The notes beneath the pieces were generated by a model, which saw nothing but the letters and a program-made list of their open reading frames with translations, ran no database searches and was not told the origin of the DNA. Positions 1 through 53,076 of a DNA stretch of 64,000 nucleotides are shown piece after piece. The translations under genes were made by a program, and so were the position numbers. This stretch comes from an uncultured Gemmatimonadaceae bacterium (GTDB lineage Bacteria; Gemmatimonadota; Gemmatimonadetes; Gemmatimonadales; Gemmatimonadaceae), in contig CAVUDW010000003.1 in NCBI GenBank assembly GCA_963740355.1, forward strand, positions 1,856,001 through 1,920,000, given 5' to 3'. Numbering within the stretch: the first letter of the stretch is position 1; each line of letters starts with the position of its first letter.

Positions 1-166
1 GCCACCGCTGGAGCAACGTGGCCGCTGTGAGCCCGCGCCCCGGAATGGGGCGCAGCTCGGCGATAGGTTGGCCGTCCATCGTGACAGTGAGCGTCTCGCC
101 GCCGGCGACGCGCTGCAGGACTCGGCCACCGTTATTGCGGAGTTCTCGGACGGAGATGTTGTCCAT
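1..166 (-). CDS. Phd/YefM-family (prevent-host-death) antitoxin, 3' end runs off the window
   Basis: Not in the ORF track. Manual translation from ATG at 166 gives MDNISVRELRNNGGRVLQRVAGGETLTVTMDGQPIAELRP, the typical Phd/YefM N-terminus (isvrELrn...l.rv..Ge.l.vT..G.PiA.l.P). Confidence 0.85.
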   Translation of the reverse strand, partial: MDNISVRELRNNGGRVLQRVAGGETLTVTMDGQPIAELRPIPGRGLTAATLLQRW

Positions 167-171
167 TCCGG

Positions 172-200
172 ATTGTATCACGCGTGAGACGGCGAGGCAA
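172..200 (-). promoter_or_regulatory. sigma70-type promoter with overlapping palindromic operator for the Phd TA operon (probably leaderless mRNA)
   Basis: Minus strand reads TTGCCT-17 bp-TACAAT, 5 nt before the ATG. Near-palindrome GTCTCACGCGTGATAC at 175-190 overlaps the spacer and -10. Confidence 0.7.
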
Positions 201-231
201 GCGTGGTTGTTTTTCGGCCGGTCTCCAGCCC

Positions 232-445
232 GATCTCAAAACGGGTATACCGACACAGCTCCCAGAGCGTGTGCCCGTGGAATGTGAAGTTCACGACCGA
301 GCTGCGTGAGCCGGCGTTTGCGCCGTGCGACCTCGTCGCCGAGCGCGCGTCGCGCGACGACTCGCGAGCGCTGGCGCGCGAGATCCTGATGATGGAGCCG
401 GTCGACTAAGCGAATACGTTCAAGGGTAGCGCCATCACGCTCGCA
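232..445 (+). pseudogene. queG: queG 3' fragment copy 1, preceded by conserved 26-bp junction motif (232-257)
   Basis: Translates QSVCPWNVKFTTELREPAFAP...SRALAREILMMEPVD*ANTFKGSAI, resembling the QueG C-terminus after the CDxCQxVCPWN Fe-S motif. Internal stop; no 5' part. Confidence 0.75.
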
Positions 446-535
446 GCAGGGATCGCGCGCGGCATCTTCCGCCAATTTCCATGCGGGCGGCGGCGAGTAT
501 GCGCGCCAGCGACTGGAGGATGCGAACGCGGGAGT

Positions 536-2725
536 CTACTTCCAGCGATATCGGAGGGCCACGTTCGCCATGAACCCTTCCAGCGGCGCCCAGACGTCGG
601 TCGTCCACCGGCCACCCATGCCCCTCGTACGTCGTACCAAGGAGTCAGTATCCGTCTGCCGCACGTTGAGCAGGTTCTCGAAATTGGCCACCAGCTCGAC
701 GGGTCCAAACTGCTTCGCCGCGATGGCCATCATGTACACGTAGGGCTTCGACGTGGTGCGGAAGGGATTGTCATCGAGAGGCTGTGCGCCAAACCACGTG
801 CCTTCAATGCCCATGCGATAGACACCGGGGCGCTCGAGCATCAGATCACCGCCCACGCGATGACGCGGCAGCAGCGGCATCGCTTCGCGCGTCCCCGTGA
901 ATGCATCGGGCCGACTGCCCCGGGAGTAGCCGTAGTTCGCGATGAACTTTCCGCCGGAGAAGCGCCAGACCGCGAGCGTTTCGATGCCGCCGACGCGCGT
1001 GCGCGCTGGGGCATTCTGTAGCAACGTCTCCCCTGCCGTCCCCACCCCGTCAGTCAGTTGCACGGCATCGGCGATGCTCGAGCCATACACGGTGAGCAGG
1101 ACTTCAGCCCGGAGCAGCGTGCCGTTGATGTCCAGCATCGCGCCGAGACTGCGTTCGGGATCGAGCGGTTGCGTCACGCGGACACCACGTAGCCCAGTCG
1201 CCTCCGTCTCTTCAGTCCGTCCAGTCAGTGCCGCGTACCCGTTGCCAACACTGCCGCGCACGGTCCATCCCTCCACTGGACGCGCGAGCAGCGCCACGCG
1301 CTCCGTGAGCTGCAGCCCCGCGTCGGGATGTGCGTCGGCGCGAACACTCGCGGAGACCGTCACGGGGCCGACGCCGCGTTCTGCCGTCACGAAGGCACCG
1401 GGAATGACCCAGCGATGATCGAACGTCGCGTTCAGTACGTTTTTGTAGTTGTCGAGCTGCACGACGCTGCCCAGCACGACTGCGCGCCGCTCCGCATCGA
1501 AGGCGCGCGTGACCTCGAGGAACCCTGTCGTGGTCTCGTCGTCCTCGCGTGCGCCCGGGCCGAACGCCCGCGCCCTCGCGCTGCCTGCAACGGCGAACCG
1601 CATCGACAGGCTGCCGCCCTTCATCGGAAGACGTGCTGTTCCGCCGATGTCGGCGCGCGTGCTGCGAAGCGCTTCGCGAAACGGCGTCCCATCCGGTGCG
1701 TTCGCCCCGCCGACGGTGCCGCCGACCCGATCATCGTATCCGACGCCCACCGTGAGGAACAGCGACCTCCCACGCGAGTCAACCGCGTGCAGTCGTGGAC
1801 GCAGGCTCCACCGCGACGCGCGCGATTGGTCCGCCCAGCCGTCGTCGTCGATGTCCTGCGCCGCCTGCGTCGTGCCGGCTGCAAGCAGCGACACACCAAC
1901 GCCCCTGCCGAAGCGATGACTGAGCCACGTCGCGCCGTCGGTCACGCCCAGCGTGCGGCGATTGAGCAGCAGCTCGTTCTGCCCGGTGGGTGGCTTCGAC
2001 ACCATGTTGATCACGCCACCCAACGCCTGTCCGCCGTACAGCGCCGACGCGGCGCCCTTGATGATCTCGACGCGCTGCAGATCGACCGGCGAGATGTCGA
2101 GCGGGCCCAACGCGCTCGCGCTGGCGCCATAGAGCGGCAACCCATCGGCGAGCATGACGGTGTACTGGCCCGGCAGTCCGAGAATACGCACGCTTCCCGT
2201 GCCCAGTCCGGGCGCTGCCGCCTGCACACGCAGCCCTGGCGTTTCGTTGAGCAGCATGCTGATGCCGCTGGGAGACATCAGCGTCTTCTCGTCGACTTCC
2301 ATCTCGTCGACGACTTCGACGCGGATCGGCGATGCACCGGCCAGACGTTCGATGCGCGTCGCGCTCACGCGCACCTCCGGCATTTGCATGGCCATCTCGC
2401 CCATTGCCGTGTTGCTCATGGTCGCGGTCACGATGACGGTGACTAGGCTATCGCGAACCACTCGCGTGGTGAGGCGGATGGGGGCGAAACCGATGCGCGT
2501 GACGGTGATGAGATGGCTTCCGACTGGCAGCACGAGCCGTGCAACGCCAGCGCTATCGCTCACGGCGCTCCGCCCGACCGACTGCACGAGAAAGCCCGCG
2601 ATCATTCCCATGGATTCCTGCACGGTGACGTGGACGCGTCCACTGTCGGCTTGCTGGCCGGAGAGCGGCGTGGCGCCAACGAGCAACGCGACAATGGCGA
2701 GCAGAGCGAGCAGTCGGTGCGTCAT
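536..2725 (-). CDS. TonB-dependent outer membrane receptor
   Basis: Signal peptide, carboxypeptidase-regulatory-like N-domain, plug motif RVEIIKGAASALYGGQALGGVIN, C-terminal ENLLN and LRYRWK. Confidence 0.9.
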   Translation of the reverse strand: MTHRLLALLAIVALLVGATPLSGQQADSGRVHVTVQESMGMIAGFLVQSVGRSAVSDSAGVARLVLPVGSHLITVTRIGFAPIRLTTRVVRDSLVTVIVTATMSNTAMGEMAMQMPEVRVSATRIERLAGASPIRVEVVDEMEVDEKTLMSPSGISMLLNETPGLRVQAAAPGLGTGSVRILGLPGQYTVMLADGLPLYGASASALGPLDISPVDLQRVEIIKGAASALYGGQALGGVINMVSKPPTGQNELLLNRRTLGVTDGATWLSHRFGRGVGVSLLAAGTTQAAQDIDDDGWADQSRASRWSLRPRLHAVDSRGRSLFLTVGVGYDDRVGGTVGGANAPDGTPFREALRSTRADIGGTARLPMKGGSLSMRFAVAGSARARAFGPGAREDDETTTGFLEVTRAFDAERRAVVLGSVVQLDNYKNVLNATFDHRWVIPGAFVTAERGVGPVTVSASVRADAHPDAGLQLTERVALLARPVEGWTVRGSVGNGYAALTGRTEETEATGLRGVRVTQPLDPERSLGAMLDINGTLLRAEVLLTVYGSSIADAVQLTDGVGTAGETLLQNAPARTRVGGIETLAVWRFSGGKFIANYGYSRGSRPDAFTGTREAMPLLPRHRVGGDLMLERPGVYRMGIEGTWFGAQPLDDNPFRTTSKPYVYMMAIAAKQFGPVELVANFENLLNVRQTDTDSLVRRTRGMGGRWTTDVWAPLEGFMANVALRYRWK

Positions 2726-2781
2726 GTGTGAACGTTAGCAGCCGTCAGCAACTCGCGGCTCGTGGCACGATCCCGCCTCCC

Positions 2782-2881
2782 GTGTCGCAGAATCTTTCAC
2801 GGACTCGCCGTTCCGGGCGCGATCGTTTTTGGACGGGAAAGACGCGCTGACGCTGGCGATGCCGCGGTGGTGCTGGAGAAC
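2782..2881 (+). pseudogene. queG: queG 3' fragment copy 2 (internally deleted)
   Basis: Encodes DSPFRARSFLDGKDALTLA, then jumps directly to AAVVLEN. Aligns with the copies at 4395 and 10192. Confidence 0.65.
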
Positions 2882-3157
2882 TCGAGCAGGGAGCGCCCGG
2901 CGGCGCGCATGGTCTGGCGTTCTGGGTTCAGAATCGAGGAACGATCATGGACCCTGACCGCATGGCTTCGACGGGCATGCTGCCGGACTACCCGTCAACC
3001 ATGGACCCGGGCAATACCGTCGCAAGTGACTAGGAATGTCCTATTCGTCGTGTTCGCCATGCGGCGAATTCCGTATGGGCGCAGCACCTAGGCTGGCGGC
3101 GTCATACGAAAGAATCGCTAGCTTTCGTCGCATGACGCTTCCACACGCCAGCGCCCA

Positions 3158-4096
3158 ATGAGCGCCGGCCTCCTCGCACTCGTCGACGATCTCACCGCCC
3201 TCGCCAAGCTCGTCGCATCCTCCGTGGACGATGCCGCAGCGCAGGGCAGCAAAGCCATCGGCAAGGCCTCGGGCATCGTGATCGACGATGCCGCCGTGAC
3301 GCCACGTTACGTGATCGGATACGCGGCCGACCGTGAACTGCCGATCATCGCGAAGATCGCCAAGGGTTCGCTGGTCAACAAGCTGGTGATCCTGACGCCG
3401 GTCTGCCTGCTGCTGAACAGACTGGCGCCATGGCTGCTGACGCCGCTGCTCATGCTCGGCGGCCTCTATCTCGCCTTCGAAGGCTACGTGAAGGTGATGG
3501 AAATGGTACGAGGCAAGACGGTGACGACCGCTTCCGCAGCGGGTACGACGGCGGAGACTGGCGCCGCATCCGAAAAGGCGAAGGTCGCCGGCGCCGTGCG
3601 CACCGACTTCATCCTGTCGGCCGAGATCATGGCCATCACGCTCGCGACCGTGGCCACGGCGCCGTTCGTGACGCAGGTAGTCGTCCTGGTGCTCGTGGGC
3701 ATCGGCATGACTGTGCTGGTGTACGGCACCGTGGCGCTGATCGTGAAGGCCGACGACTTCGGCGCCTATCTCGCGCAGACGGGCAGTGGTGCCGCGCGCG
3801 CACTCGGTCGCGGTATCGTGGTCGGGATGCCGAAGCTGCTGGCCGCGCTCGGCTTCGTCGGCATGCTGGCGATGCTCTGGGTCGGTGGCGGCATCATCAC
3901 GCACGGCCTGCATGAACTCGGCGTGCATGGGCCGGAGGAGTTCGTGCAGCACCTCGGCGCGCTGGCAGGCGGCGCGGTGCCTGCGATGGCGGGTGCCGTG
4001 TCCTGGCTCGTGACGGCCGCAATCTCCGCCGTCATCGGTCTCGCGCTCGGCGCGATCGTCTCACCGATCGGACACAGGGTGCTGCCGGCGCACTGA
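3158..4096 (+). CDS. DUF808 family inner membrane protein (YedI-like)
   Basis: Motifs GLLALVDD, GIVIDDAAVTPRYV, RELPIIAKIAKGSLVNKL and GAVRTDFILSAEIM. Confidence 0.9.
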   Translation: MSAGLLALVDDLTALAKLVASSVDDAAAQGSKAIGKASGIVIDDAAVTPRYVIGYAADRELPIIAKIAKGSLVNKLVILTPVCLLLNRLAPWLLTPLLMLGGLYLAFEGYVKVMEMVRGKTVTTASAAGTTAETGAASEKAKVAGAVRTDFILSAEIMAITLATVATAPFVTQVVVLVLVGIGMTVLVYGTVALIVKADDFGAYLAQTGSGAARALGRGIVVGMPKLLAALGFVGMLAMLWVGGGIITHGLHELGVHGPEEFVQHLGALAGGAVPAMAGAVSWLVTAAISAVIGLALGAIVSPIGHRVLPAH

Positions 4097-4121
4097 CGTC
4101 GCGCGCTGTTTGTTCTCAGCG

Positions 4122-4390
4122 TCAGAACTTGCGGGTGTAGCCGACACGAACGACCTGCCTCTCCAGGCAGTCGGTGCGCAGCAGTTGAAAGTTCGTCAAG
4201 CGGATCGTGCGTCGCCTGATTCGTGTTCAGCACGTCAGTGGCGTTGACCACGATCTCACCCTTGCCACTTTGTACCGAGACTTTCGCTCGAAGATCGCGC
4301 GAAAAGCGGCTGCCGATGCGGCCCTGCGGCAGCAGGTCCGGCGCGAGATACTCGCCCGACACCTGCGCTTGCCTGTCATGGGGCAGTCGC
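4122..4390 (-). pseudogene. C-terminal remnant of a TonB-dependent receptor / outer-membrane beta-barrel
   Basis: YLAPDLLPQGRIGSRFSRDL...GKGEIVVNATDVLNT, then a frameshift to RTDCLERQVVRVGYTRKF* (terminal Phe). The 5' part is missing and the remnant ends at the queG fragment. Confidence 0.7.
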
Positions 4391-4394
4391 AACA

Positions 4395-4568
4395 CGGGCG
4401 CGGGAGTTCATCGCGGAGAAAGACTTGCGCACGCTGGCGCAGGACATCCTCGCGCCGGATCGGGAGCAGTTCAGCGCGGCGCTCCGGAAGTCACCGATGA
4501 AGCGGGCGATATTGGCTGGATTGCGGCGGAATGCGGCTTTGGTGGTCACCAACGATGCCGAACGGTGA
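4395..4568 (+). pseudogene. queG: queG 3' fragment copy 3
   Basis: RAREFIAEKDLRTLAQDILAPDREQFSAALRKSPMKRAILAGLRRNAALVVTNDAER* matches the QueG motif F..SPMKRAK..GL.RNAAVVLGN. Confidence 0.8.
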
Positions 4569-4905
4569 CGTTCGTCAGGCGCGACCCATTCTCGTGGCCT
4601 GAAGTCATTGCGCCAGTGATGGTTTCCGTGTGAGCGCGGCCGGACGAGACGTCACCACCGGGCACGCGGGAATGCGTGCGTCAGACCGGCTGACACGGTT
4701 TCCACGACGCTCCGAGTCAAGTCGCAGACCCCACGCTACGTGGCCAACCGGTCGAGGCCGTCTTCGCCCGCGAGAGAATACGCCTCCATGACGCGGAGCA
4801 GGAACTTTGTACTGAAACTTCCGTACGTCATGCCACGCGTGACCCATCCGACAGGCAGCCTCTTTGTCACACTCGACGTCGTCTCCTCTCTCACCCGACA
4901 GCCCG

Positions 4906-6135
4906 ATGACCATCAGCATGCTCGTCCGGTCTTTGATCGCCGCGGCGTTATTCGCACTGCCCGCCGTTGCTCAATCGTCGAGAGCACGTTCGGACGGGCG
5001 AGTGGAAATTTCGATCAACTCGACTGTGCTCGGTGCGAGTCGACGCGTCATTCTCGCGCCACCATACGGCGGAACGAGTACCGAGGCGCATGCGGTGCTG
5101 CTGCTGCTCGACGCGGATGACGAGCCGCAGTTCAACGCCGCTGTCGCGAACATCCGCTTCCTCGAGGATCGTGGAGCGATCCCGCGGCTGCTCGTTGTGG
5201 GTATTCCGAATGGTGCGACGCGCAATCGAGACCTTGCCCCCGCAGCAACCATGCAGACAAATGTCGCAGATCCGGCATTACGCGAGGGCCCGGAACGTTT
5301 CGCTCGCTTCCTCGAGTCGGAGGCGCTGCCCGCAGTACGCGCGAGGTTTCGTACCCTTCCGTACACGGTCATTGCCGGACACTCGCTTGGCGCGCTCTTC
5401 GTATTGCAGCTGATCGCGAACCGACCCGGACCCTACGCAGCGGCGATTGCGATGAGTCCGTCGCTGTGGTGGAGCAATGGCGCGCTCGGTGCGCCGTTCG
5501 CCGATGCCATCAAGCGTCTGCGATCGCCGTTTCGCTTATTTGTGTCGAGTGGTGCGTTCGAGCCGCGCATAGACAAGCCGACGCAGCAGTTCATCGCGAC
5601 ATTGGAATCCAACCCACCATTGGGTTCGCTCGACTTTCGGTCGCGACACTACCTGGACGACTCTCACGCTCTCACACCGCTCGTGAGCCTGACTGACGGG
5701 CTACGCTTCATCTTCGAACCGATCGGCTTGGCCGTCAGCGCGATGAACAAGCTTGACGGCGAGTCCGATTCCACGAGCATCGTCACGGCATTCTCCGGCG
5801 TGACGAAGCGCTACTCGGCCGGCGCAAGGGCAATCGGCCTGGATACGTTGCTCCCGGAGTCCTTCGCCCTCCAATCGGGCGCGTCCGTGCTGCGGAATAT
5901 GCAGAAGCCTGGCGCCGCGCGTGTCATTCTCAACTGGGCCGTGCAGGCCTATCCTCAGTCTGCCGCCGCCCACGAAACGTTCGCCGACGCGCTGGTAGCC
6001 GCTGGTGACACTTTGCTGGCCCACACGGAATACGCGCGAGCGATCGTGCTCGCGAGTGCTGCCGGCGATTCGTCGGTCAGTGGCATTCGCGCCAAGCAGC
6101 GCGCCATCAAGCAACCGGTTCCACCGCCCCGCTGA
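4906..6135 (+). CDS. Secreted alpha/beta-hydrolase, putative esterase (IroE/Fes-like) with TPR-like C-terminus
   Basis: Signal peptide, LVVGIPN, RNRDLAP, nucleophile motif GHSLGA, and SPSLWW. Confidence 0.85.
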   Translation: MTISMLVRSLIAAALFALPAVAQSSRARSDGRVEISINSTVLGASRRVILAPPYGGTSTEAHAVLLLLDADDEPQFNAAVANIRFLEDRGAIPRLLVVGIPNGATRNRDLAPAATMQTNVADPALREGPERFARFLESEALPAVRARFRTLPYTVIAGHSLGALFVLQLIANRPGPYAAAIAMSPSLWWSNGALGAPFADAIKRLRSPFRLFVSSGAFEPRIDKPTQQFIATLESNPPLGSLDFRSRHYLDDSHALTPLVSLTDGLRFIFEPIGLAVSAMNKLDGESDSTSIVTAFSGVTKRYSAGARAIGLDTLLPESFALQSGASVLRNMQKPGAARVILNWAVQAYPQSAAAHETFADALVAAGDTLLAHTEYARAIVLASAAGDSSVSGIRAKQRAIKQPVPPPR

Positions 6136-6428
6136 TTCGCGACACGATTCGTCGCAGGCAGCAGCAGCCAGTCCCCTGGAACGCGCACATCAGAAGAACG
6201 CGCACATGTCCAGCGCGACGCCGTAGTCGCCGCGCATTGCAGCACCCCAGAAGCCGAGCGAGGTGCGCCCGTATGCGCATCGATGCGGTTTCGTGGCGCG
6301 AAAGGGGAGTGCGCCGTGATCCCTCGAAACTTTGGCGCCCCGTAGCCACGCACGCACGTCGGCCTACGGCTCGCAACGACCCACTCGTCCCGTGCGGCGT
6401 CCGTGTCGCCCCTTCGCGGTGACACCGA

Positions 6429-6980
6429 TTGCCGCGCGCACCTACGTTCGGCGCATCCCCAACCCCGAACAGGAGCGCATCATCATGCCCACTGCTATGG
6501 ATCGTCACCATCGTCGCGCGTGCGAGGCTCTCGGCGGTGTCCGGTGCCGCGCTGGCCGCCACCCTGCTGGCAGCTGGGACGGCGCGAGCGCAGTCGACAC
6601 GGTCACTGGCCGTTACGCGCCCCGCGCAGGCCGCTGCAGATACGACCATTCTTTCGAGCGGCCCTGACCTGCAGGGGCTCTGGGACTTCGCAATGCGCGT
6701 AGGCGACCGACCGTCCACCGGCTTCTTCGCGCTCGGCCCCGTCGAACGGGGATGGGCTGGCTCGCTCACGCCATACCTCACGAACACGCTGGCGATCCGC
6801 CTGCTCACCGTGGACGGGGACTCGGTGCGGATGGTCGTTGCGTCGCGGGAGGGCGATGTGCGATTTCATGGGCGGCTGACCGACAACGGACGCACGATGG
6901 AAGGCATCGTGGACTATCACGGCGGCGTGCGCGTTCCGATGACGGCCACGCGCCGCGCCCAGCCTGTCGCGCCACGCTGA
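6429..6980 (+). CDS. Hypothetical secreted protein (start uncertain)
   Basis: Signal-like segment AALAATLLAAGTARAQ, beta-rich body, directly upstream of the LytS/LytTR pair. The best RBS+ATG (6485) is out of frame. Confidence 0.6.
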   Translation: MPRAPTFGASPTPNRSASSCPLLWIVTIVARARLSAVSGAALAATLLAAGTARAQSTRSLAVTRPAQAAADTTILSSGPDLQGLWDFAMRVGDRPSTGFFALGPVERGWAGSLTPYLTNTLAIRLLTVDGDSVRMVVASREGDVRFHGRLTDNGRTMEGIVDYHGGVRVPMTATRRAQPVAPR

Positions 6981-6990
6981 GCCCAGCCGC

Positions 6991-8199
6991 ATGAGCGGAA
7001 TGGCCGTCCCCAATGCCCTTGATCGCACCGAGTCCCTCCCCGGATACTCAAAGGTGACGACACGCGCGCAAGAACTGGGGGATGTCGGCTCTTCGGAGTC
7101 GGCCACGGAGCGGCGTATCGTCCCGGTGGGGGCCGTCGTGCTGACGACGTTCTTTGCCCTGCTCTACGGGCTGCGCGGCAGCATCGCGGCCCTCGACCGT
7201 GGCGAGGATCCGCGCTGGGCGCAGCAGGTCGGCTGGTCACTCGCCATGTGGTGGACCTGCCTGCCACTGCTACCGCCGCTGGCGTCCCTCGTCCACCGGT
7301 TCCCGGTGGGACGCCCGCATCCGTGGAGGAACGCCGGCATCCTGCTGCTCGGCACGGCGACGGCCGCCTGGCTCCGGCACGTTGTGATGACCCCGGTCGT
7401 GGTGGCGATCACCGGTGTCCCCGACGTAGCGGCGAGCGCTGCCGCGCGGACTCTCACGTACTTCACCGTCTTCCTCGTGATGGTCGCGCTCCTCCACGCC
7501 TCTCACTACTACCGCGCGGAACGAGCCCGTGCAGTGCGCGAGGCAGCCCTTGCCCGAGGGCTCGCCGAGGCGCGGCTCGCCGCGCTGCGGACGCAACTGC
7601 ATCCGCACTTCGTCTTCAACGTGCTCAATGCGGTCACGACCCTCCTGCACGCCGACCCGATGGCGGCCGACCGAATGCTGACCCGCTTCGCGGCTCTATT
7701 GCGCGAGATACTGCACGAGGGGGCAGAAGAGCACGCGCTCGAGCGCGAGCTCGAGTTGTTGGCGCGCTACGTCGAACTGATGCAACTGCGTTTCGGTGAC
7801 CGCATCGTCGTGGAATGGGCCGTGGCCGATGCACCACTCGGCGCACGCGTGCCCTTTCTGGTCTTGCAGCCGCTGGTCGAGAACGCCTACGAACACGGGC
7901 TTGGCGGACGGGAAACGGGCGGACGCGTGCAGATCAGCGCGACACGCGCGGGCGACAGGCTTGAACTCGTCGTCGAGGACGATGGCGCGGGTCTCAGCGC
8001 TGAGGCAGGGTCGATCATCGGTCGAGGGAATGCGGAAACGGGTACTGGTATCGGCCTGCGCAACACGCGCGATCGCCTCGTGCAGCTCTACGGCGCGCAC
8101 GCCTCACTCGTGCTGGAGCGACCGTCGGATGGCGGTACGCGCGCGCGGGTGACGCTGCCGTTGATCGATGGACCGCACAGAAACGGGGCGCATCCATGA
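6991..8199 (+). CDS. LytS/YehU-type sensor histidine kinase
   Basis: TM segments, H-box LRTQLHPHFVFNVLN, LQPLVENA, VEDDGAG, GIGLRN. Confidence 0.92.
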   Translation: MSGMAVPNALDRTESLPGYSKVTTRAQELGDVGSSESATERRIVPVGAVVLTTFFALLYGLRGSIAALDRGEDPRWAQQVGWSLAMWWTCLPLLPPLASLVHRFPVGRPHPWRNAGILLLGTATAAWLRHVVMTPVVVAITGVPDVAASAAARTLTYFTVFLVMVALLHASHYYRAERARAVREAALARGLAEARLAALRTQLHPHFVFNVLNAVTTLLHADPMAADRMLTRFAALLREILHEGAEEHALERELELLARYVELMQLRFGDRIVVEWAVADAPLGARVPFLVLQPLVENAYEHGLGGRETGGRVQISATRAGDRLELVVEDDGAGLSAEAGSIIGRGNAETGTGIGLRNTRDRLVQLYGAHASLVLERPSDGGTRARVTLPLIDGPHRNGAHP

Positions 8200-9113
8200 A
8201 CGAACCGACGCGCGATCGGCGCGCGAGTCTTGCCGCCGAAAATCGAGGTTCCTGGAAGGTGCTGATTGCCGATGACGAGCCCCTCGCGCGCGCGCGCCTG
8301 CGTGCGCTGCTTGCGCGACATCCCGAGTTCGAGCTCACGGCGGAATGCGGAAGCGGCGCGGCGGTTCTCGCTGCGCTCCGCAACGGCCCCGCCGATGTGC
8401 TGCTCCTGGACATCCGCATGCCCGGCCTCGATGGCATCGCGACGGTGGAGGCTCTTGCCCAGGAAGCGCCATGGTCGGTGGAGCGGCCCCCATGCGTCGT
8501 CTTCGTCACGGCGAGCGAGGAGCACGCGATCCGTGCATTCGATCTGGATGCGGTCGACTACCTCGTGAAGCCGGTCGACATCGATCGCTTCGATCGGGCG
8601 ATGCGGCGACTGCTCGAGACGCTCGGGTCACCGTCCCACGCCCCCGATGCCGCAGCCATCGCGGCGGCCGATGCGGCGCTTCGGGGCGCGCTGCAGGCCC
8701 TGCATGGCGACGCGCCCGCGCCAGCCAGCGGCATCGCCGGGGGCTCCGCCTCCCACGCACGAACTGGGGCCGTATCGGAGGACAGGTATGCGAAGCGATT
8801 CGTGATCCGCGACGCGCGAGGGATGCATTTCGTGGCCGTCGCGGACGTCGACCGTGTCGAGGCGGAGGGCAACTACGTGGCGGTCTTCGCCGCGGGGCGA
8901 CGGCATCTCGTGCGTGAGTCGCTCAATGCCATCGCATCGCGGCTCGACCCGGCGGAGTTTGTGCGGGTGCATCGGTCGCATGTCGTACGGATCGACCGGA
9001 TTCGCCGCCTGGAACCCTGTGGCCATGGCGAGTACGACCTCACGCTGGGAGACGGCACCCGACTGACCTCGAGCCGGAGCTATCGGGAGCAAGTACGGCG
9101 ACTGCTCCGCTGA
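8196..9113 (+). CDS. LytTR family response regulator
   Basis: Receiver motifs IADDEPLAR, LLDIRMPGLDG, DYLVKP; LytTR motifs AEGNYV and FVRVHRSHVV. 4-bp overlap with the kinase. Confidence 0.93.
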   Translation: MNEPTRDRRASLAAENRGSWKVLIADDEPLARARLRALLARHPEFELTAECGSGAAVLAALRNGPADVLLLDIRMPGLDGIATVEALAQEAPWSVERPPCVVFVTASEEHAIRAFDLDAVDYLVKPVDIDRFDRAMRRLLETLGSPSHAPDAAAIAAADAALRGALQALHGDAPAPASGIAGGSASHARTGAVSEDRYAKRFVIRDARGMHFVAVADVDRVEAEGNYVAVFAAGRRHLVRESLNAIASRLDPAEFVRVHRSHVVRIDRIRRLEPCGHGEYDLTLGDGTRLTSSRSYREQVRRLLR

Positions 9114-9209
9114 CGGAAGCGCGAGCCATGCTGCGAAATGCCGTGGGCATCACACGATGACGCGGTCGTCAGAAGACACGCGGGACCCGTGTCGGGACGC
9201 GGCAGCCGC

Positions 9210-9308
9210 GAGCTCAGCGCGGCGTTCCGGGAGTCACCGATGAAGCGGGCGAAGTTGGCGGAGCTCAGGCGGAATGCGGAGGTCGTACTCACCAATGCCG
9301 AGGCATGA
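9210..9308 (+). pseudogene. queG: queG 3' fragment copy 4
   Basis: ELSAAFRESPMKRAKLAELRRNAEVVLTNAEA*. Clear nucleotide similarity to 4470-4555 and 10358-10400. Confidence 0.8.
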
Positions 9309-9383
9309 TCACGACGAAGTGAGACCGCCGGGGCTGCATGCATCGCCGCGCGCACCATGACGCTCGCCGCAACGGTCTGTCAT

Positions 9384-9779
9384 TCACAGCGACAAAGGAA
9401 CGAGTCGTGCGCGAATCCAGTCGGCCAGCAGCGCCTCCGTGACTTCTCCTCCCGCCAAGGCGACCATCATCTGCACCACATCCACCTCGGTCGCAGACAG
9501 CTCCTTCCCATTGAGTCCGAGGAAGGCCATCATCGTGACGAAAGCAGTGCGCTTGTTCCCATCGCTGAATGGATGCGCGCGCGCGAGTCCAAAGGCATAG
9601 GCTGCCGCCAGCGAGGCAAGGTCGGATGCCGGCTCGTAGGACCACTGCTGCCGTGCACGAGCAAGCGCGTCCTCGAGAGCGTTCTCGTCCCGGACGCCGG
9701 CGAGCCCTCCGTGCTCCCGCAGCTGATCGAGATGGATGGAATCCACGACGATACGCGGCACCCAGCGGGGCTCTCGCAT
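9384..9779 (-). CDS. doc: Doc/Fic family (death-on-curing) toxin
   Basis: HGGLAGVRDENALEDALAR and Fic/Doc motif HPFSDGNKRT. Confidence 0.92.
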   Translation of the reverse strand: MREPRWVPRIVVDSIHLDQLREHGGLAGVRDENALEDALARARQQWSYEPASDLASLAAAYAFGLARAHPFSDGNKRTAFVTMMAFLGLNGKELSATEVDVVQMMVALAGGEVTEALLADWIRARLVPLSL

Positions 9780-9788
9780 GACGCCGGT

Positions 9789-10016
9789 CTACTTGGCCAG
9801 CTCGCGCAACGCGTTGCGGTATTTCTTCGCCGCATGGGCCGCGACCGCGAGTCCAGCCTCGACGTCGGGATCGAACGGTGTCAGGAGAATCCCCTGTGCA
9901 GTCTCGATGGCGAGTACGCGGTCGCCCGCCTCGAGGTGGAGGCGGTCGGCCATATCCTTCGGGATGGTCGCACCAATCGACCCGCCCACCTGGCGCAGTG
10001 TCAGTTCACGGACCAT
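9789..10016 (-). CDS. AbrB/MazE/SpoVT-family antitoxin
   Basis: LRQVGGSIGATIPKDM swapped-hairpin N-terminus and C-terminal KYRNALRELAK. Immediately upstream of doc. Confidence 0.9.
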   Translation of the reverse strand: MVRELTLRQVGGSIGATIPKDMADRLHLEAGDRVLAIETAQGILLTPFDPDVEAGLAVAAHAAKKYRNALRELAK

Positions 10017-10064
10017 CGGTACACCCGCATCATCGGGATTACACCAGAGATTATCGCCAGAACG

Positions 10065-10093
10065 AAAGTAGCATTATTATGCTACCGATGCAA
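10065..10093 (-). promoter_or_regulatory. sigma70-type promoter with palindromic operator upstream of the AbrB-Doc TA operon
   Basis: Minus strand reads TTGCAT-17 bp-TACTTT. Inverted repeat GTAGCAT-N4-ATGCTAC at 10068-10085. Confidence 0.65.
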
Positions 10094-10191
10094 GCACGCC
10101 CTGCCGGCAGCGTGAGAACGCAGAGAGTGAGGCAATCATCACACCGCGACGGCGTCCGCCGACGGACGGTCCGGGCTCCTACGTTGAGCGG

Positions 10192-10420
10192 GATCTCAAA
10201 ACGGTTATGCCGACACATCGCCCAGGCCGTCTGCCCGTGGAGCATGAAGTGCTCGCAGGAACTGGCGTAGGACTTCACGTTCCGGGAGCGGGCGTTCATC
10301 GCAGGGAAGGATGTCGAGACGCTGGCGTCAGACATCGTGGCGCTGGACCAGAACGTGTTCAGCGCGGCCTTCCGGAAGTCGCCGATGAAGCGGGCGATGC
10401 TCGTTCGGTTGCAGCCCAGT
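10192..10420 (+). pseudogene. queG: queG 3' fragment copy 5, preceded by conserved 26-bp junction motif (10192-10217)
   Basis: QAVCPWSMKCSQELA*DFTFRERAFIAGKDVETLASDIVALDQNVFSAAFRKSPMKRAML with an internal stop. Motif is 24/26 identical to 232-257. Confidence 0.8.
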
Positions 10421-10565
10421 GTCACGCGCCGGCTGTACCCTCGCCACAGCTCCGTGCGACGTCATGGACAGCGCGCGTCACCTGATGAGCCGGTTTGCGC
10501 AGCATTCGGGTTCTGGACGAGTGGAGGTACTGATCGCCGGTACCGAACCCGATCAGGAGAACCGC

Positions 10566-11243
10566 GTGCGTCTGACATCTGCCATCACTGGAATCCTGGT
10601 AATCAGTGTGATCGTCACCGATGGCGCAAAGGGGCAGTCGTCGGGCGTGCATTGCGAGCGTCGGGCACCGCTGGTTGCCACCACCGACACGTCACCAGTG
10701 ACAGATGCATCGCGTTTCACAATGGACTCGATGGCGCGGTCGTGCCCGGACCCGGCGCGTTTGTCACACATTGACCCCATGCCCCCCAGCCGACTCCGGG
10801 TGCTCAGCGGAATCGGTGCCGCCGCGGCCGTCGCGCAGGCCATTGACTCGCCGGAGCAGTGGCCGCGGACCACCGTGGGCCTGTTACAGCGTCTCGCGGA
10901 TCGGTCGGGCGCCGTGGCGATTCAGGCACTCACGTACCACGCCGTCAGCCAGCGCCTTGGGTGGGTGCCGGACCAGGTCTCGTGTCCGACGGGCGCACTG
11001 GCACGCGCGCAGTGCGCGATTGCCAGTACGCTGGTCGTGCGAAACGCCCACGGCGCACCCCGCCCCGATGTCGCACGGCTCGCCGGGCTCACACTTGGCT
11101 CGGCTGCCTCGCTGCTCTGGCGCCCTGAGCGTCGCTCGGGCGGTGACGCCGCGCTGTTCGTCCTGACGCGCGTTGGGAGCGGACTCGCCTTCACCGCCCT
11201 GCGCCACGCGGTCGCCCGCCGACGGCCCTCCGGCCAGCACTGA
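10566..11243 (+). CDS. Hypothetical exported/membrane protein
   Basis: RBS (CAGGAG) before GTG at 10566, hydrophobic N-terminus, coding-like composition. Confidence 0.6.
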   Translation: MRLTSAITGILVISVIVTDGAKGQSSGVHCERRAPLVATTDTSPVTDASRFTMDSMARSCPDPARLSHIDPMPPSRLRVLSGIGAAAAVAQAIDSPEQWPRTTVGLLQRLADRSGAVAIQALTYHAVSQRLGWVPDQVSCPTGALARAQCAIASTLVVRNAHGAPRPDVARLAGLTLGSAASLLWRPERRSGGDAALFVLTRVGSGLAFTALRHAVARRRPSGQH

Positions 11244-11388
11244 TCCGCCGTTGTCGTTCCACACGTCCGACCGCTGGGCGGAACCAGCGAGCCCCATGAA
11301 CCCCAGGCCAATCCGTACGCTCCGGTGCCGCGATCCACGTCGAACGTCCGTGCATGTTTTTCGCCCATCACCCTCTGCCCGAACGACG

Positions 11389-11838
11389 ATGCGACATCCC
11401 TACCTCTCGGCGCTGGCCGTCACGCTCCTCGTGCTCGGCTGTCGCGCGGATTCACCGCCGACGGCGCCCGACGCGGTGCCACTCGATCCCGCTGGCAGCA
11501 TGACGATCGGCCCCGGAGTGTCCGGGCGCTGGGTGCGTACCGGCTACGCCGTCACCGGTACGGCCACGCTGACCATCGACGGGACCACGGCCCGGCTCGA
11601 TCTGTCGAGTGATTTCAGCATCGGACAGGCCCCCGGCCCCACGCTGTACCTCAACACGCAAAGCAATCCGAACGGAGGACAGCCGTTGCGCATCGGTGCG
11701 CTGCGCAGCCGCAGTGGCGCGCAGTCGTACTCGTTTCAGGTGCCAGCGGGCATACGCTACACACACATCATCATCTGGTGTGATCCGTTCAACGTGGCGA
11801 TGGCGGAAGTCGTGCTTCCGGCCAGCGGCGGGTCGTGA
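11389..11838 (+). CDS. DM13 domain lipoprotein
   Basis: Lipobox LVLGC; DM13-like DFSIGQAPGPTLYL, GAQSYSF and IIIWCDPFNV. Confidence 0.8.
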   Translation: MRHPYLSALAVTLLVLGCRADSPPTAPDAVPLDPAGSMTIGPGVSGRWVRTGYAVTGTATLTIDGTTARLDLSSDFSIGQAPGPTLYLNTQSNPNGGQPLRIGALRSRSGAQSYSFQVPAGIRYTHIIIWCDPFNVAMAEVVLPASGGS

Positions 11839-11925
11839 CGCCGTGGCGCAGCCAGTACGATTCCATTGATGTGTAGAAGGAGCACCGGCACGGGTGCATG
11901 CCTCGGCGATCTGCGCGAGTCCTCC

Positions 11926-14900
11926 TCAGGAGCCGCCGGAGCCTCGCTGCCCGGCGGCGGCCGCTGCAGCGAAGGGCACGCCGGTGACGCCCGGCCCCTC
12001 AAGCAGCGCGCGATACCATTCACGCGACTCACTGGACCGGCCGCTCCGATGCAGGCAGTCGGCCAGCGCGAGGCGCTCGGGATACTGGCTGAGAACGGGG
12101 TGCCGTGCGCGCAACGACGTCGGGAGGTCGAGCATCGCCTGCTGAAACGCGCCAAGCGCGCCGGCCACGTCGCCGCCGCGCAGCATGCGGTGGCCCGTCA
12201 GCGCGGCGAGCAATGGCGCTGCGACCCGCGAGGGTGTCGCTGATCGCGTCGCCAGCGCACGGAGGGCTCCGGCCAACCCGGTCGAATCGCTGATCCGGAT
12301 GCTCAGCATGCCGAGCAGATATTCCCGCACGTCGCGCTGCTCACGTCCCGTGAGCCCACTGCCCGCATCCACCGGGGTGACGCGGCGTGTCAGGAGTTCG
12401 TTGCGCAGCGAGCGAAGACTGTCGACGGCGATCGTGACGGATGGCGCCAGCGCGAAGAAGGCGCGATCGTCCACACCGCGTGCCGGATCGAGCCCCTCGG
12501 CGATTCGGAACCGCGACGAGGCCGCGACCCAGTTGCCGTCGGCGACATCCAGTGCCGCGAGGGCCCGCAGTCCTTCCGCCCGCGTGTCGGGGGTGGGAGC
12601 TGCCGCCATGGTGTTGGCGTAGGCACGCGCTGCTGAGCGATCGCGCAAGTCGTTCCCGATGCGCTGCAGACCGACGCGGGCGATAGCGGGGTCATCGCGC
12701 AGGTCGACCGGAAGCGTGTTCGCCGGCGCACCAGCGATGCGTCGGCGGTAGAGCGCCATGTACGCCGCACGGATGCCTGGCTGCTCACCGGCGCTGTTGG
12801 GACTGAAGTACATGCTGTACAGCGTGTCGAGCTGGCCGAGCCGATTGGCCTTGGCAGCGAGATCCATCAGGTACACCGTCACTTCGCGATTGCGCGGATC
12901 GAGCGCCATGACCGACTGGAATGCCTTGCCCGCATCCTGAATCGACCGGCCGCGATAGGGATTGCTGCCGAACTGCGTTTCGCCGAGCAGCATCCACGCC
13001 TCGACATCAGTCGGATAGTCGCGGACCATCTGCGCCAGCCGTCGCTCGGCAGCCGTCGGGCTACCGAAGCGCAGATCGTGATAGGCGCGGATCAACGCCT
13101 GCTGACGCGGCGGCAAGGTGCTCGCCAGATCGTATGCACGTTGGGCCGCCGATGAACTGAGGGATTCCACTTCGTTCCAGCGGGCGGCGCGGGCGAGGCG
13201 ATACCATGCCAACGCGAACTGCGAATCGGCCGCCACCGCTTGCTGAAAGTTCTCGACGGCTGCCGCCGGGCGCGCATCGCGAAGCTCGCGCTCGCCGTCG
13301 AGGAAGGCGCGCAATGCGCGCGATGACGATGTCGTCGCCGCGGCGATGCCGGCGACAGTATCAGCGGGCGCCAGCAGTGCGCTGGCGATGAGCTGGCGCA
13401 CGATCGCGTCGACGCCTCGCGCCAGGCTGGCCGTATCGTCCACGGCAGCGAAGGCGCGACCGATCTCACGGCCGTCGATACTGCGCAACGAGGCGCGGAA
13501 GCTGAGCATCCGGCCGCTCTTGACGAGACTCCCGACGACGTATCGATGGGCTTTCACGCGGACCGCAAGCGCACGCGCATCTGCGGAATCGAGCGTCGTG
13601 GCCCCATCGGTGCCCGCCGCGCCGATGATGGTGTTGGGATCGATGCCGCGGACGAGGCCCGTGCCATCGAACGCCGGCGTGAGCAGGTCGACCATCCCCT
13701 CACGCAGGTACGCGATGTCACTGCCGCCACGCGTCGAGAACGGAAGGATGGCGAGCGTCGGCAACGGCTCGTCGGTTCGCACGACTTCCACCGCTGGCGG
13801 CGACACGCCTGCGGCGGGCGTTCGCCGCGTCCACCACGCCGCACCAGCCAGCGCCGCCGCGACGGTGAGGGCAACGAGCGGCGTGCGAACACCACGCGTA
13901 CGGTGCGCCGACGTCGGGAGCGAGCGTGCTGCCTCGCTGTCAGGTGGCAGTTGGACGTCGCGCACGGGCACCGTGGTCCCTGGCATCGCCTGCAACGCCG
14001 CGAGGACGGCGGCGCCGTCGGCGGGCCGGTCATCGGGTGCGGCGCTCAGCATGCGCCGGATCACGGCTGCAAAGGCTGGCGTCGGAGTCGTTCCATCCAG
14101 GCGTGCGAGCGGCGGTAGCGGCCCGTCGATGATCGCGGCGGCGAGGGTCTCCGGGTCGGCCCCGGTGAACGGGCGCCGACCGGTCACCATCTCGAAGAAC
14201 GTGACCCCGAGCGCCCACACGTCGGCGCGCGCACTGCGCGGGGCGCCACGCCAGAGCTCGGGGGCGAGGTATGGGAGTGTCCCGATCAGCCCCTGCCCGC
14301 TCAGCGATGCCGCCTCGTGTTCATGCACGGCGACACCAAAATCGAGCAGACGCGCAACATCACCCTCACCGAAGCCGACATTCGCCGGCTTGATGTCACC
14401 ATGCACGATCCCGGCGTGGTGTGCGCTGGCAAGGCCACGTGCGAGATGATTCGCGATCGTCATCACGTCATCGAGTGTCAGCAGGCCACTGCGCAAGCGA
14501 TCGCGCAGCGTGCCACCGGCGCAGAAGGCCATCACGATGCAGAGTGCACCGTCGGCCGTCGATTCGATCGCGTAAATGGCGCAGACGTGCGGGTCATCGA
14601 GTCGCGACGCCGCCTGCGCTTCGCGGACGAGCCGTGCGCGAGCCACCGCATCGCCGCTCACTGATGGCGCGAGCACCTTGATCGCCACGTCGCGTTCGAG
14701 GAGTGTGTCGCGCCCCCGATAGACGATGCCCGCACCGCCGCTGCCGATCCGCTCGTGCACGACGAAGTGCCGGATGCGGTCCCCGGGCGCGACGACGTCG
14801 GTGCGCGGCGCATCGTGGTCCGGAGACTGCGTGTCGCGCAGGTCATCATGTGCCAGCGCGGGCTGGATGATGTCCGCATGCAGTTCGTCGAGAAATGCTG

Positions 14901-15072
14901 TCGCGCCGTCATGCGCGGCGACCAACGATTCGAGCTCGGCGCGGAACGCTGCGTCGGACCCGTACGTCGTCGCGAGGTACGAGGCGCGCTGCGACGTCGG
15001 CAACGAGATGACGAGCTCGAACGCGCTGCTCAACCGCTCCCAGCTCGCGCGAGCCTCTGGCGGTTCAACCAT
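11926..15072 (-). CDS. Hanks-type Ser/Thr protein kinase with TM segment, TolB_N-like and TPR domains
   Basis: IGSGGAGIVY, VAIKVL, HGDIKPAN, LLDFG, GTLPYLAPE, DVWALG; TM near aa 400; helical repeats. Overlaps the ECF sigma stop. Confidence 0.92.
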   Translation of the reverse strand: MVEPPEARASWERLSSAFELVISLPTSQRASYLATTYGSDAAFRAELESLVAAHDGATAFLDELHADIIQPALAHDDLRDTQSPDHDAPRTDVVAPGDRIRHFVVHERIGSGGAGIVYRGRDTLLERDVAIKVLAPSVSGDAVARARLVREAQAASRLDDPHVCAIYAIESTADGALCIVMAFCAGGTLRDRLRSGLLTLDDVMTIANHLARGLASAHHAGIVHGDIKPANVGFGEGDVARLLDFGVAVHEHEAASLSGQGLIGTLPYLAPELWRGAPRSARADVWALGVTFFEMVTGRRPFTGADPETLAAAIIDGPLPPLARLDGTTPTPAFAAVIRRMLSAAPDDRPADGAAVLAALQAMPGTTVPVRDVQLPPDSEAARSLPTSAHRTRGVRTPLVALTVAAALAGAAWWTRRTPAAGVSPPAVEVVRTDEPLPTLAILPFSTRGGSDIAYLREGMVDLLTPAFDGTGLVRGIDPNTIIGAAGTDGATTLDSADARALAVRVKAHRYVVGSLVKSGRMLSFRASLRSIDGREIGRAFAAVDDTASLARGVDAIVRQLIASALLAPADTVAGIAAATTSSSRALRAFLDGERELRDARPAAAVENFQQAVAADSQFALAWYRLARAARWNEVESLSSSAAQRAYDLASTLPPRQQALIRAYHDLRFGSPTAAERRLAQMVRDYPTDVEAWMLLGETQFGSNPYRGRSIQDAGKAFQSVMALDPRNREVTVYLMDLAAKANRLGQLDTLYSMYFSPNSAGEQPGIRAAYMALYRRRIAGAPANTLPVDLRDDPAIARVGLQRIGNDLRDRSAARAYANTMAAAPTPDTRAEGLRALAALDVADGNWVAASSRFRIAEGLDPARGVDDRAFFALAPSVTIAVDSLRSLRNELLTRRVTPVDAGSGLTGREQRDVREYLLGMLSIRISDSTGLAGALRALATRSATPSRVAAPLLAALTGHRMLRGGDVAGALGAFQQAMLDLPTSLRARHPVLSQYPERLALADCLHRSGRSSESREWYRALLEGPGVTGVPFAAAAAAGQRGSGGS

Positions 15073-15670
15073 GGTTCGTGGTGTCGGCGTCACGCAGCGC
15101 ACGATGCAACCAGGCCTGTGCGACGGCCCAGTCGCGCTTCACGGTCGCCTCAGAGATCTCGAGCGCGAGCGCGGTCTCGGGGATGGACAATCCCCCGAAG
15201 TAGCGGCACTCCACCACGCGACAGGGCCGCGGATGCAACTGCTCGAGACGTAGCAGCGCCGCATCGAGCGCCGCAACGCGATCGACCAGATCATCCGGCA
15301 CGACACCGAGTTTCTCGGCCAGCGCACCATCAAAGGTGTCGACGACCGCGGAGCCGCCACGCTTGAGTGCCTGTGCGTCACGGGCATAGTTGCTGACGAT
15401 CTGCCGGGTGGCCCGCACTGCGACGGCGAAGAAGTGACCACGGTTCTGAACCGAAAGCGAGCCGGCGCCCGCCAGCCGCAGGTAGACTTCGTGCACGAGC
15501 GCGGTCGTTTCGAGCGTGTGATCACCACGGGCGGCATTCCGCCGACGGAGCCGTCGCGCGATCAGCCGCAGTTCATCGTAGACGCGCGCGAACAGCTGGT
15601 CGCCGGCCTTCGTGTCACCATCGCCCCACGCCCGGATCAATCCGGTGACGGAGTCATCGACCTCGGACAC
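15065..15670 (-). CDS. ECF sigma-70 factor (kinase-associated, TIGR02999-like)
   Basis: VTGLIRAWGDGD, LFARVYDELRLIA, HTLETTALVHEVYLRL, KRGG, VVECRYFGGLS, TVKRDWAVAQAWL. Confidence 0.92.
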   Translation of the reverse strand: MSEVDDSVTGLIRAWGDGDTKAGDQLFARVYDELRLIARRLRRRNAARGDHTLETTALVHEVYLRLAGAGSLSVQNRGHFFAVAVRATRQIVSNYARDAQALKRGGSAVVDTFDGALAEKLGVVPDDLVDRVAALDAALLRLEQLHPRPCRVVECRYFGGLSIPETALALEISEATVKRDWAVAQAWLHRALRDADTTNHG

Positions 15671-15849
15671 CCGAACCTCGCACTGGTGGAAAGCGCTGCG
15701 AGCCGGGGCGTTCCGCCACGGGTCCGGAACTGTGGTGCTCCAGATTTCCGACAGACAGCGTTGCTCGACACAATCTATCGAGCGGCATCCAGGTGGCGAA
15801 TCGGTGATGGGTACCGATAGTGACCTGACGAGAGCGATGCACGCGACAC

Positions 15850-15933
15850 CGCGGACACGATCGCCCTCCAGCACCAGGTGTTGGCGCTGCAGGGCGATGG
15901 TGTCCGCGACGTCGCGTCGCTGCGACGTCGCGG
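15850..15933. repeat. Two abutting inverted repeats (27-bp arms, 24/27 matches; 12-bp perfect arms)
   Basis: 15850-15876 pairs with 15882-15908. CCGCGACGTCGC-N6-GCGACGTCGCGG at 15904-15933. Confidence 0.75.
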
Positions 15934-15984
15934 GGCGCCGAACGTGTAGCGTTCCCGTGTCAAGTGGTTCGGTAACGCGGCGAG

Positions 15985-52967: not shown

Positions 52968-53056
52968 CTCACGCTGTTGGTCAGGCATCGGGAAGTCCGG
53001 CAACCGCGTGCCGGACATTCATCCTTAATCGCTCGATGAGATCGCGACGTCCGTTG
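52968..53056 (+). pseudogene. Decayed duplicate of the 3' end of the nitroreductase gene at 54332-55000
   Basis: 53006-53050 is 40/45 identical to 54948-54992 (RVPDIHP*SLDEIATSV vs [17 protein letters not shown]). Confidence 0.8.
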
Positions 53057-53076
53057 AACGCCGTCCGACGTCCTGG

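Follow-up and report, generated by a model that had tools for sequence, protein, structure and literature searches.

Displaced 3' ends of queG downstream of the intact gene

The stretch of DNA analysed here (the window) comprises 64,000 nt of a Gemmatimonadaceae genome (G000, contig C3, positions 1856001-1920000; negative positions lie to the left of the window start), and its left end carries a series of partial copies of queG separated by unrelated genes. An intact queG lies ~4 kb to the left of the window (C3:1851018-1852037, i.e., window -4982 to -3963), and its product passes the QueG equivalog model TIGR00276 (tRNA epoxyqueuosine reductase) with 291.5 bits against a cut-off of 200, covering model positions 2-329 of 337. 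A first-pass annotation of the window had recognized at least five same-strand pieces of a QueG 3' end and had placed the intact gene to the left of the window, and both predictions were borne out. The displaced copies that we examined are headed by a left arm that is missing from queG itself (...GATCTCAAAACGGTTATACCGACACATCTCCCAG), the conserved 27 nt of which are AAACGGTTATACCGACACATCTCCCAG, followed by the QueG-like tail. Five sites were matched both by tblastn, for which the 339-aa QueG of this genome served as query, and by a DNA profile made from the sites of relatives (nhmmer):

202..405, + strand: site remnant 1 (profile positions 7-201, E 3e-37; tblastn 230-460, aa 229-305, 38% identity). 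The left arm is kept (27-nt motif at 239-265, 2 mismatches); a decayed QueG-like stretch, starting at VCPWN, comes next.
2800..2860, + strand: site remnant 2 (profile positions 114-174, E 2e-10; repeat family D4; weak tblastn match at 2574-2906). The mid-piece alone is left, the left arm and VCPWN having been deleted.
4395..4574, + strand: site remnant 3 (profile positions 128-307, E 6.5e-40; tblastn 4401-4553, aa 263-313, 71% identity). The left arm is missing.
9210..9308, + strand: site remnant 4 (profile positions 200-298, E 1e-19; tblastn 9210-9305, aa 285-316, 75% identity). The last third alone is left (SPMKRA...RRNA..VL.N).
10160..10421, + strand: site remnant 5 (profile positions 5-266, E 3e-67; tblastn 10217-10426, aa 239-308, 59% identity). 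This final site of the array is the most complete, with a left arm motif at 10199-10225 (2 mismatches) and one in-frame TAG in the tail.

The DNA profile gave exactly six matches genome-wide, all on the + strand of C3, namely queG and the five window sites; the shared motifs and the coordinates of the first-pass annotation proved correct, the latter to within ~30 nt. All six matches are co-stranded and fall within 15 kb, starting at the intact queG. At the protein level, the only other significant tblastn matches in the 5.4-Mb genome were queG itself and a ferredoxin-domain paralogue on contig C2 (aa 132-248 only), and no further significant copy of the QueG C-terminus was found elsewhere in the assembly by this search; the copies are restricted to this one place. 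An independent repeat search retrieved the site families as well (as D2, D3, D4, and D6). Because the genome has no large serine recombinase (LSR, the candidate enzyme considered below), three of the five sites lack the left arm, and frameshifts or stop codons occur in the tails, the array of this genome is a decayed relic; livelier arrays, and the candidate recombinase, are found in congeners. For this genome, then, the 15 kb that follow queG are horizontally acquired, toxin-antitoxin-rich mosaic DNA that is now fixed in place.

Arrays of queG tails in related genomes

With QueG aa 225-339 as query, matches were obtained in 60 of 61 related genomes (the tally includes G026, an unpublished genome that enters no other result). 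The 19 congeners hold 1-27 matches each, the highest numbers being found in G005 (27), G019 (24), G012 (21), G002 (19), and G003 (18). Among the genomes of other genera, 37 of 41 have a single match, while G021, G022, G024, and G031 have 2-4; in G021, a diverged arm (...CGGCACGTCTCCCAG) precedes a displaced copy. The extra copies mostly begin at query residue 14 (S/VCPWN) and finish near residue 90. Within 738 kb of array contigs from 13 genomes, every one of the 143 profile matches lies on the strand of the local queG, and the intervals between sites define 106 cassettes of 195-34,670 nt (median 3.6 kb). The array pattern is genus-wide.

Conservation of the left arm and the tail

The left arm reads as the QueG segment IYGCDICQ minus both cysteines and one codon. 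Its 27-nt motif occurs 114 times (≤3 mismatches) in 16 of 20 congeners, 35 of the occurrences being perfect, whereas the reversed motif, used as a control, does not occur at all. When a near-exact arm pattern was sought with one genome per species, 64 loci were retrieved, and for 60 of them the record title names Gemmatimonadaceae, Gemmatimonadales, Gemmatimonadota, or Gemmatimonas. The remaining four loci (L122, L139, L150, and L162, all exact) are on three short contigs binned into Phycisphaerales, Acidimicrobiia, and Sphingomonadales metagenome-assembled genomes; these are probably mis-binned Gemmatimonadaceae contigs.

Across 95 full sites, the site unit is conserved from about -45 to +215. 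Three 9-nt windows over the arm (-23 to +3) average 92%, 96%, and 82% majority identity, and conservation of the tail at codon positions 1, 2, and 3 is 0.877, 0.888, and 0.774, respectively; at least 72 codons are open in 81 of the 95 tails. Since codon positions 1 and 2 are better conserved than position 3 and most tails are open, the tails have been under protein-level selection, as would be expected if any displaced tail could take over as the functional 3' end of queG. Conservation is tighter still in the non-coding arm, which points to its recognition as DNA.

The open frames and codon-level selection kept by most copies in relatives, together with their position downstream of an expressed gene, would also suit a silent cassette bank for gene conversion of the QueG C-terminus, or a set of small free-standing paralogues, rather than scars of integration. 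We regard this as highly improbable. The copies are separated by unrelated cargo of 0.2-35 kb and are confined to arrays, a conserved start codon upstream of the arm was not apparent in the copies inspected, and the arm reads as a QueG stretch from which both Cys codons are missing. Moreover, QueG, a cytoplasmic tRNA enzyme, is not known to need variation.

The crossover point and a model of serial accretion

The homology between queG and its copies starts at one point, ATCTGCCAG (window -4268), in dozens of copies. In G016, a copy shares the rare CAATCCGTCTGCCCATGG with that genome's own queG right after the arm, and at four LSR-bearing loci host-variable sequence gives way to element-constant sequence (GAGGTGTGTCCGTATAACCGTAAATT) directly after CAG. 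These three observations thus place the presumed exchange within ~9 bp at codons 235-237 of queG.

We consider it likely that the array arose by serial accretion at an attB inside queG, in a manner resembling that seen in staphylococcal cassette chromosome (SCC) elements, and that the window holds its distal part. The attachment site would lie inside queG at codons Q237 to V239, just past the last Cys codon of the Fe-S motif, and an incoming element would bring a ~260-bp site unit consisting of a non-coding left arm (ending ...AAACGGTTATACCGACACATCTCC) and the last 75-100 codons of queG in functional form. Recombination in the shared ATCT(C/G)CCAG would then fuse the 5' part of the host queG to the 3' copy of the element, and because the one is joined to the other, queG would remain intact, while the earlier 3' end, now headed by the left arm of the element, would be displaced downstream. 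Repeated entry would place behind queG an alternation of cassettes and displaced tails, beginning with a cassette. The likely enzyme is a divergent LSR that autonomous elements encode against the queG tail; the cargo-only cassettes, which are the majority, are probably moved by this LSR in trans, and homologous exchange between the repeated tails would add to the shuffling of cassettes.

Cassettes are shared and re-ordered among species

A comparison of cargo among related genomes had been set beforehand as a test of modular gain, and it revealed gain, loss, and re-ordering of modules exactly at the arm-marked boundaries. One cassette family, for example, is the first behind queG in G012, fills inter-site interval seven in G009, and is found far inside the array of G015. 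Similarly, a Doc-AbrB unit that is last in this genome's array directly follows queG in G018 (blastn of L020, 85.8% over 703 nt). G005 and G014 share a 1141-nt cassette at 97.7% identity, with different neighbours on both sides, and also a 4.9-kb cassette at 98.5% identity, for which identity climbs from ~50% to 100% at the joint. Cassettes of the present genome are shared as well: that with the TonB-dependent receptor matches a copy in the array of G010 at 96% identity over 2.2 kb (contig C66; blastn), and that with the DUF808 gene is 93-94% identical to its counterpart in G016, whereas the 5' part of queG and the genes upstream of it are only 79-84% identical to those of all congeners. The core of the first-pass reading, repeated integration at one attB in queG, holds, with modules that have conserved arm boundaries and are gained, lost, and re-ordered in relatives.

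A candidate large serine recombinase abuts queG in relatives

The first-pass annotation had also proposed that the modules carry no recombinase of their own and that an integrase adjoins queG. The former is the case in this genome's array; the latter is not, as neither the array nor the 15 kb upstream holds a match to PF00589, PF00239, or PF07508. Genome-wide, neither a resolvase-domain nor a PF07508 match was found, and the four PF00589 matches are all away from the array. Taken as a whole, that interpretation stands in part, its array anatomy and link to queG being supported and its integrase beside queG being absent here.

Only in other genomes does an LSR adjoin queG, on its downstream side. 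In G009, an LSR core of 572 aa lies directly behind queG in convergent orientation (PF07508 7e-11, 42.7 bits against a cut-off of 21.1) and forms one end of a 34-kb element, a defence island with a C5 methylase, a Gabija-like pair, and a STAND NTPase, whose far end carries an arm variant. The PF00239 score was 22.9 bits, just short of the cut-off of 23.3, and fell on a duplicated N-terminal copy of this LSR; the YTRKSTESGERQ motif and invariant C336 and C339 were read from the sequence, and a PDB sequence search with the LSR gave no match. The duplicate, which is truncated and lies just upstream of the G009 LSR, corresponds to its first 159 residues at 80% identity. In the same region (L045:4619-7329), the LSR frame itself extends into sequence antisense to the queG tail of the element, ending ~8 nt away from the joint.

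A search of the 61 genomes revealed an intact homologue in G010 (88% identity), also abutting queG, and no displaced copy that could serve as attR of this element was found within the 41 kb up to the contig end. A second PF07508 recombinase (G010:C95:33353-33676) is located ~6 kb from the queG-adjacent one, an arrangement reminiscent of the Ccr gene pairs of SCC. G005 and G014 hold one C-terminal LSR remnant, which is in a shared cassette inside their arrays beside a displaced tail of the long type, and two more distant homologues occur in G036 (at a contig end) and G046 (where queG is not adjacent). Although a first scan of metagenomes with the single LSR sequence found nothing, a profile scan of metagenome contigs produced 23 relatives. 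Three of those loci include both the gene end and the adjoining DNA, and in all of them a complete queG points towards the LSR convergently at a distance of 140-150 nt; LSR identity in these loci is 72%, 73%, and 48%. The LSR thus abuts the queG 3' end in all five testable loci (G009, G010, and three metagenome or genome loci), and this LSR clade is tied to queG, a link that does not by itself make it the mover of the cargo-only units. We infer that the LSR makes the joints described above and that those units would move in trans.

Several observations weigh against that reading. Of 20 congeners, only 3 contain PF07508, the genomes with the largest arrays (27 copies in G005, 24 in G019) are without it, and neither an LSR nor another recombinase is found in or near the array of the present genome. 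A search of the 738 kb of array contigs with the LSR as query gave matches in G009, G010, and one remnant cassette family only, so that most cassettes do not look like autonomous elements in decay. The tail of the LSR elements themselves reads EVCPYNRKF and differs from that of most cassettes, SVCPWNVKF. Canonical LSRs recombine attP with attB only and do not re-enter the product site, so repeated entry at a regenerated site would require relaxed pairing by the candidate LSR; relaxed pairing has been reported for SCC recombinases. Dyad symmetry of the site was not convincing (best ungapped score 13 of 27). Excised circles, which the first-pass annotation had suggested seeking in reads, and empty sites were not seen when contigs from four runs were compared with window positions 1-16000; the best public runs contain ≤19% of the region's sampled words, and only short, low-depth pieces were obtained. 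The apparent joints between site copies in these runs (e.g., 292>2801, 292>4395, and 4424>9214) were not accepted as evidence of excision, because their sides are 21-24 letters long at 90% likeness and may stem from site copies of other organisms. Finally, in the 1141-nt cassette pair the tract of 98-99% identity begins ~180 nt inside the tail, as a homologous crossover would give.

This last observation bears on a rival explanation, namely that homologous recombination alone built the arrays, by Campbell-type single crossovers in the ~215-bp tail homology and RecA-type shuffling, with no dedicated recombinase for the cargo-only cassettes. A single crossover in the tail gives exactly the observed layout, the tails are long and ~80% alike, and most array-rich genomes lack any LSR. 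It leaves unexplained, however, why the arm core is 92-96% conserved when third positions of the tail are at 77%, and it sits poorly with the fixed point at which queG homology starts in dozens of copies, with another cassette pair whose identity changes exactly at that point, and with the presence of one LSR clade at this very site in 5 of 5 loci. On balance, we think it unlikely that homologous recombination acted alone and prefer serial accretion by site-specific recombination.

Other resident recombinases

A further possibility is that another resident recombinase, an integron integrase or XerC/XerD, acts on the sites in trans, as in integrons, integrative mobile elements exploiting Xer (IMEX), and dif modules. 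Three strong Xer-like genes are present in every congener checked, those of the present genome being XerD, XerC, and, third, a genuine integron integrase (TIGR02249; 386 bits, cut-off 265), and arrays without an LSR are the rule in most genomes. The integron integrase, however, has a classical array of its own alongside (at least 12 attC sites, 490 kb away). Folding is seen for the attC sites (mean z -3.4 over 8 sites) but not for the queG sites (mean z 0.06 over 12); the dif of the genome (ACTTCTTATAAGAAGTATTATGTAAACT) is unlike the arm, and a G|TT crossover inside the arm would wreck the Cys codons of queG. Because site sequence and folding differ in this way, both Xer/dif and the integron integrase were rejected as the enzyme, and we judge such an origin very unlikely.

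The classical chromosomal integron occupies C3:2331212-2344244, ~475-488 kb to the right of the window, with its integrase on the - strand at C3:2343144-2344244 and its attC sites (~93 nt, CTAAC...GTTAGGC) at C3:2331212-2341783; a homologue of the integrase is present in the four congeners checked. The canonical dif-like site is at C2:2388979, ~18 kb from xerD.

An IS110 transposase gene ~15.5 kb upstream of queG was also considered and set aside as coincidental, as the genome contains eight matches, six of them with equal score; among the other arrays checked, a counterpart was found only below threshold (19.5 bits against a cut-off of 29, on the array contig of G019). The 29 other array contigs were searched with the tyrosine-recombinase, resolvase, PF07508, and PF01548 families and by tblastn with the LSR only.

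Cargo between the sites and DNA around the array

The first-pass annotation had named unrelated cargo between the QueG pieces, and Pfam confirmed these names. The open reading frames (ORFs) scanned were hand-picked (this genome and G021) or filtered by third-position G+C (G016 and G009), and small or atypical genes may escape such a scan. The cargo of the array sits on both strands:

2..181, - strand: Phd/YefM antitoxin, running off the window start (PF02604).
536..2725, - strand: TonB-dependent receptor (Plug and TonB_dep_Rec beta-barrel).
3158..4096, + strand: DUF808 membrane protein (PF05661, 3.7e-110).
4210..4395, - strand: C-terminal remnant of an outer-membrane beta-barrel gene (PF14905, residues 2-62 of ORF 3766-4395).
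4864..6135, + strand: putative esterase (PF00756).
6429..6980, + strand: ORF without a Pfam match.
6991..8199, + strand: LytS-type histidine kinase (PF06580 and PF02518).
8196..9113, + strand: LytTR response regulator (PF00072 and PF04397).
9384..9779, - strand: Doc/Fic toxin (PF02661).
9789..10016, - strand: AbrB/MazE-type antitoxin (PF04014).

The module to which the Phd antitoxin belongs also contains a PIN toxin (PF01850) and a Ser/Thr kinase (PF00069), both a short way to the left of the window. A gene judged by eye to encode a VapC/PIN-like toxin lies on the - strand between this kinase and queG (window -3583 to -3116, C3:1852417-1852884); Pfam gave no hit for the + strand ORFs overlapping it, the - strand ORF itself being outside that scan. 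Since a homologue of this gene terminates a cassette in five other genomes, the first module of the array looks like two cassettes that fused after the loss of a site.

Beyond site remnant 5, positions 10419-15102 contain an unknown ORF, a DM13-domain gene, and a gene for a Ser/Thr kinase of 1058 aa. This segment is homologous in G014 and G019 to the interior of large "cassettes" beyond which more sites lie, and the original end of the array is therefore not certain. Elsewhere in the window, a tandem 12-nt repeat (ACCGCCACGAAG-like, ~8 units) occupies 18248-18343 inside ORF 17867-18388, and a 56-nt direct repeat (82% identical) occurs at 53006-53061 and 54948-55003, 1.9 kb apart.

Comparison with known systems

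A full-text literature search found no paper describing queG as the target of such elements. Cis-mobilizable elements (CIMEs), known from the 3' end of fda in Streptococcus thermophilus (ICESt1 and ICESt3), are units that have att flanks but no recombination genes and adjoin an integrative element in tandem. The queG arrays resemble them in that units free of recombination genes stand in tandem at the 3' end of a housekeeping gene, but CIMEs depend on a tyrosine recombinase and number one or two, whereas the queG arrays contain dozens of units.

In layout and logic, the queG arrays match the composite SCC islands at rlmH/orfX, which, in the account given in PMC7029136, combine a serine recombinase, entry into the 3' end of a gene for RNA modification, inter-unit repeats, and units without a recombinase. 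As far as that account goes, the queG system shares with SCC a serine recombinase (here a candidate LSR), a conserved RNA-modification gene as target, entered at its 3' end with the frame kept, and tandem entries split by direct repeats; 3'-end insertion with an intact frame, bounding repeats, and recombinase-less tandem units were all found here. It differs in its target (queG, not rlmH), in its host (Gemmatimonadaceae), and in its repeat, which at ~260 bp includes 75-100 replacement codons while that of SCC is ~18 bp. Nor is the recombinase a Ccr, as NCBIfam gave only an XisF-like match (28.6 bits against a cut-off of 375) and no Ccr model, and the arrays are far denser than SCC islands, with up to 27 sites per genome and a median cassette of 3.6 kb.

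Tycheposons of Prochlorococcus accrete in push-down fashion at one site (bioRxiv 10.1101/2020.12.28.424599). As they are outlined there, the likeness extends to older units being pushed inward, scattered partial target-gene copies and degenerate remnants, and adaptive cargo; but tycheposons, by the same outline, use tyrosine recombinases and tRNA genes, whereas queG is a protein-coding target to which a serine recombinase is linked, and most queG-array units have no mobility gene at all. In the five genomes checked, the arrays lacked PF00589 and the target was protein-coding, which sets them apart from tycheposons and tRNA islands. IMEX and dif modules, with their 28-bp dif-like boundaries, were likewise dismissed, the genome's dif being unlike the arm.

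With sedentary chromosomal integrons, the arrays have in common their length and single direction, small and mostly recombinase-less cassettes rich in toxin-antitoxin genes, one recombination site per cassette, and entry beside a fixed platform. Unlike integrons, they have no IntI at the platform (no tyrosine recombinase was found in or near the arrays of the five genomes), their sites do not fold like attC and double as coding sequence, their cargo points in both orientations with its own signals, and the host has a separate classical integron too. None of the defining features that were examined would class the arrays as integrons. The description "integron-like" in the first-pass annotation is therefore apt for the layout and fails for the sites, which are not attC-like, and for the orientation of the cargo.

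It is conceivable, and we offer it tentatively, that the queG arrays are a working analogue of the integron, in which a gene serves as the platform, each cargo-only cassette has one double-stranded site of ~260 bp that combines a 27-nt recognition arm with a usable QueG C-terminus, a queG-specific LSR acts in trans, and cassettes circulate between species of the genus. If so, the LSR of occasional autonomous elements would capture, excise, and re-order dozens of cassettes beside a classical integron in the same genomes, and truly trans-mobilized cargo-only units would represent a second, independent solution to the problem of a gene-cassette platform, operating in a phylum of soil and freshwater that has been little studied and has true integrons as well. 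A new LSR specific to queG, with defined sites, would then be available too. Tandem accretion at the 3' end of a gene is already known from SCC, tRNA islands, and tycheposons; the queG arrays show a density of units, a small size, and a recombinase-free nature that come near to those of integron cassettes, at sites that are double-stranded, partly coding, and tied to an LSR.

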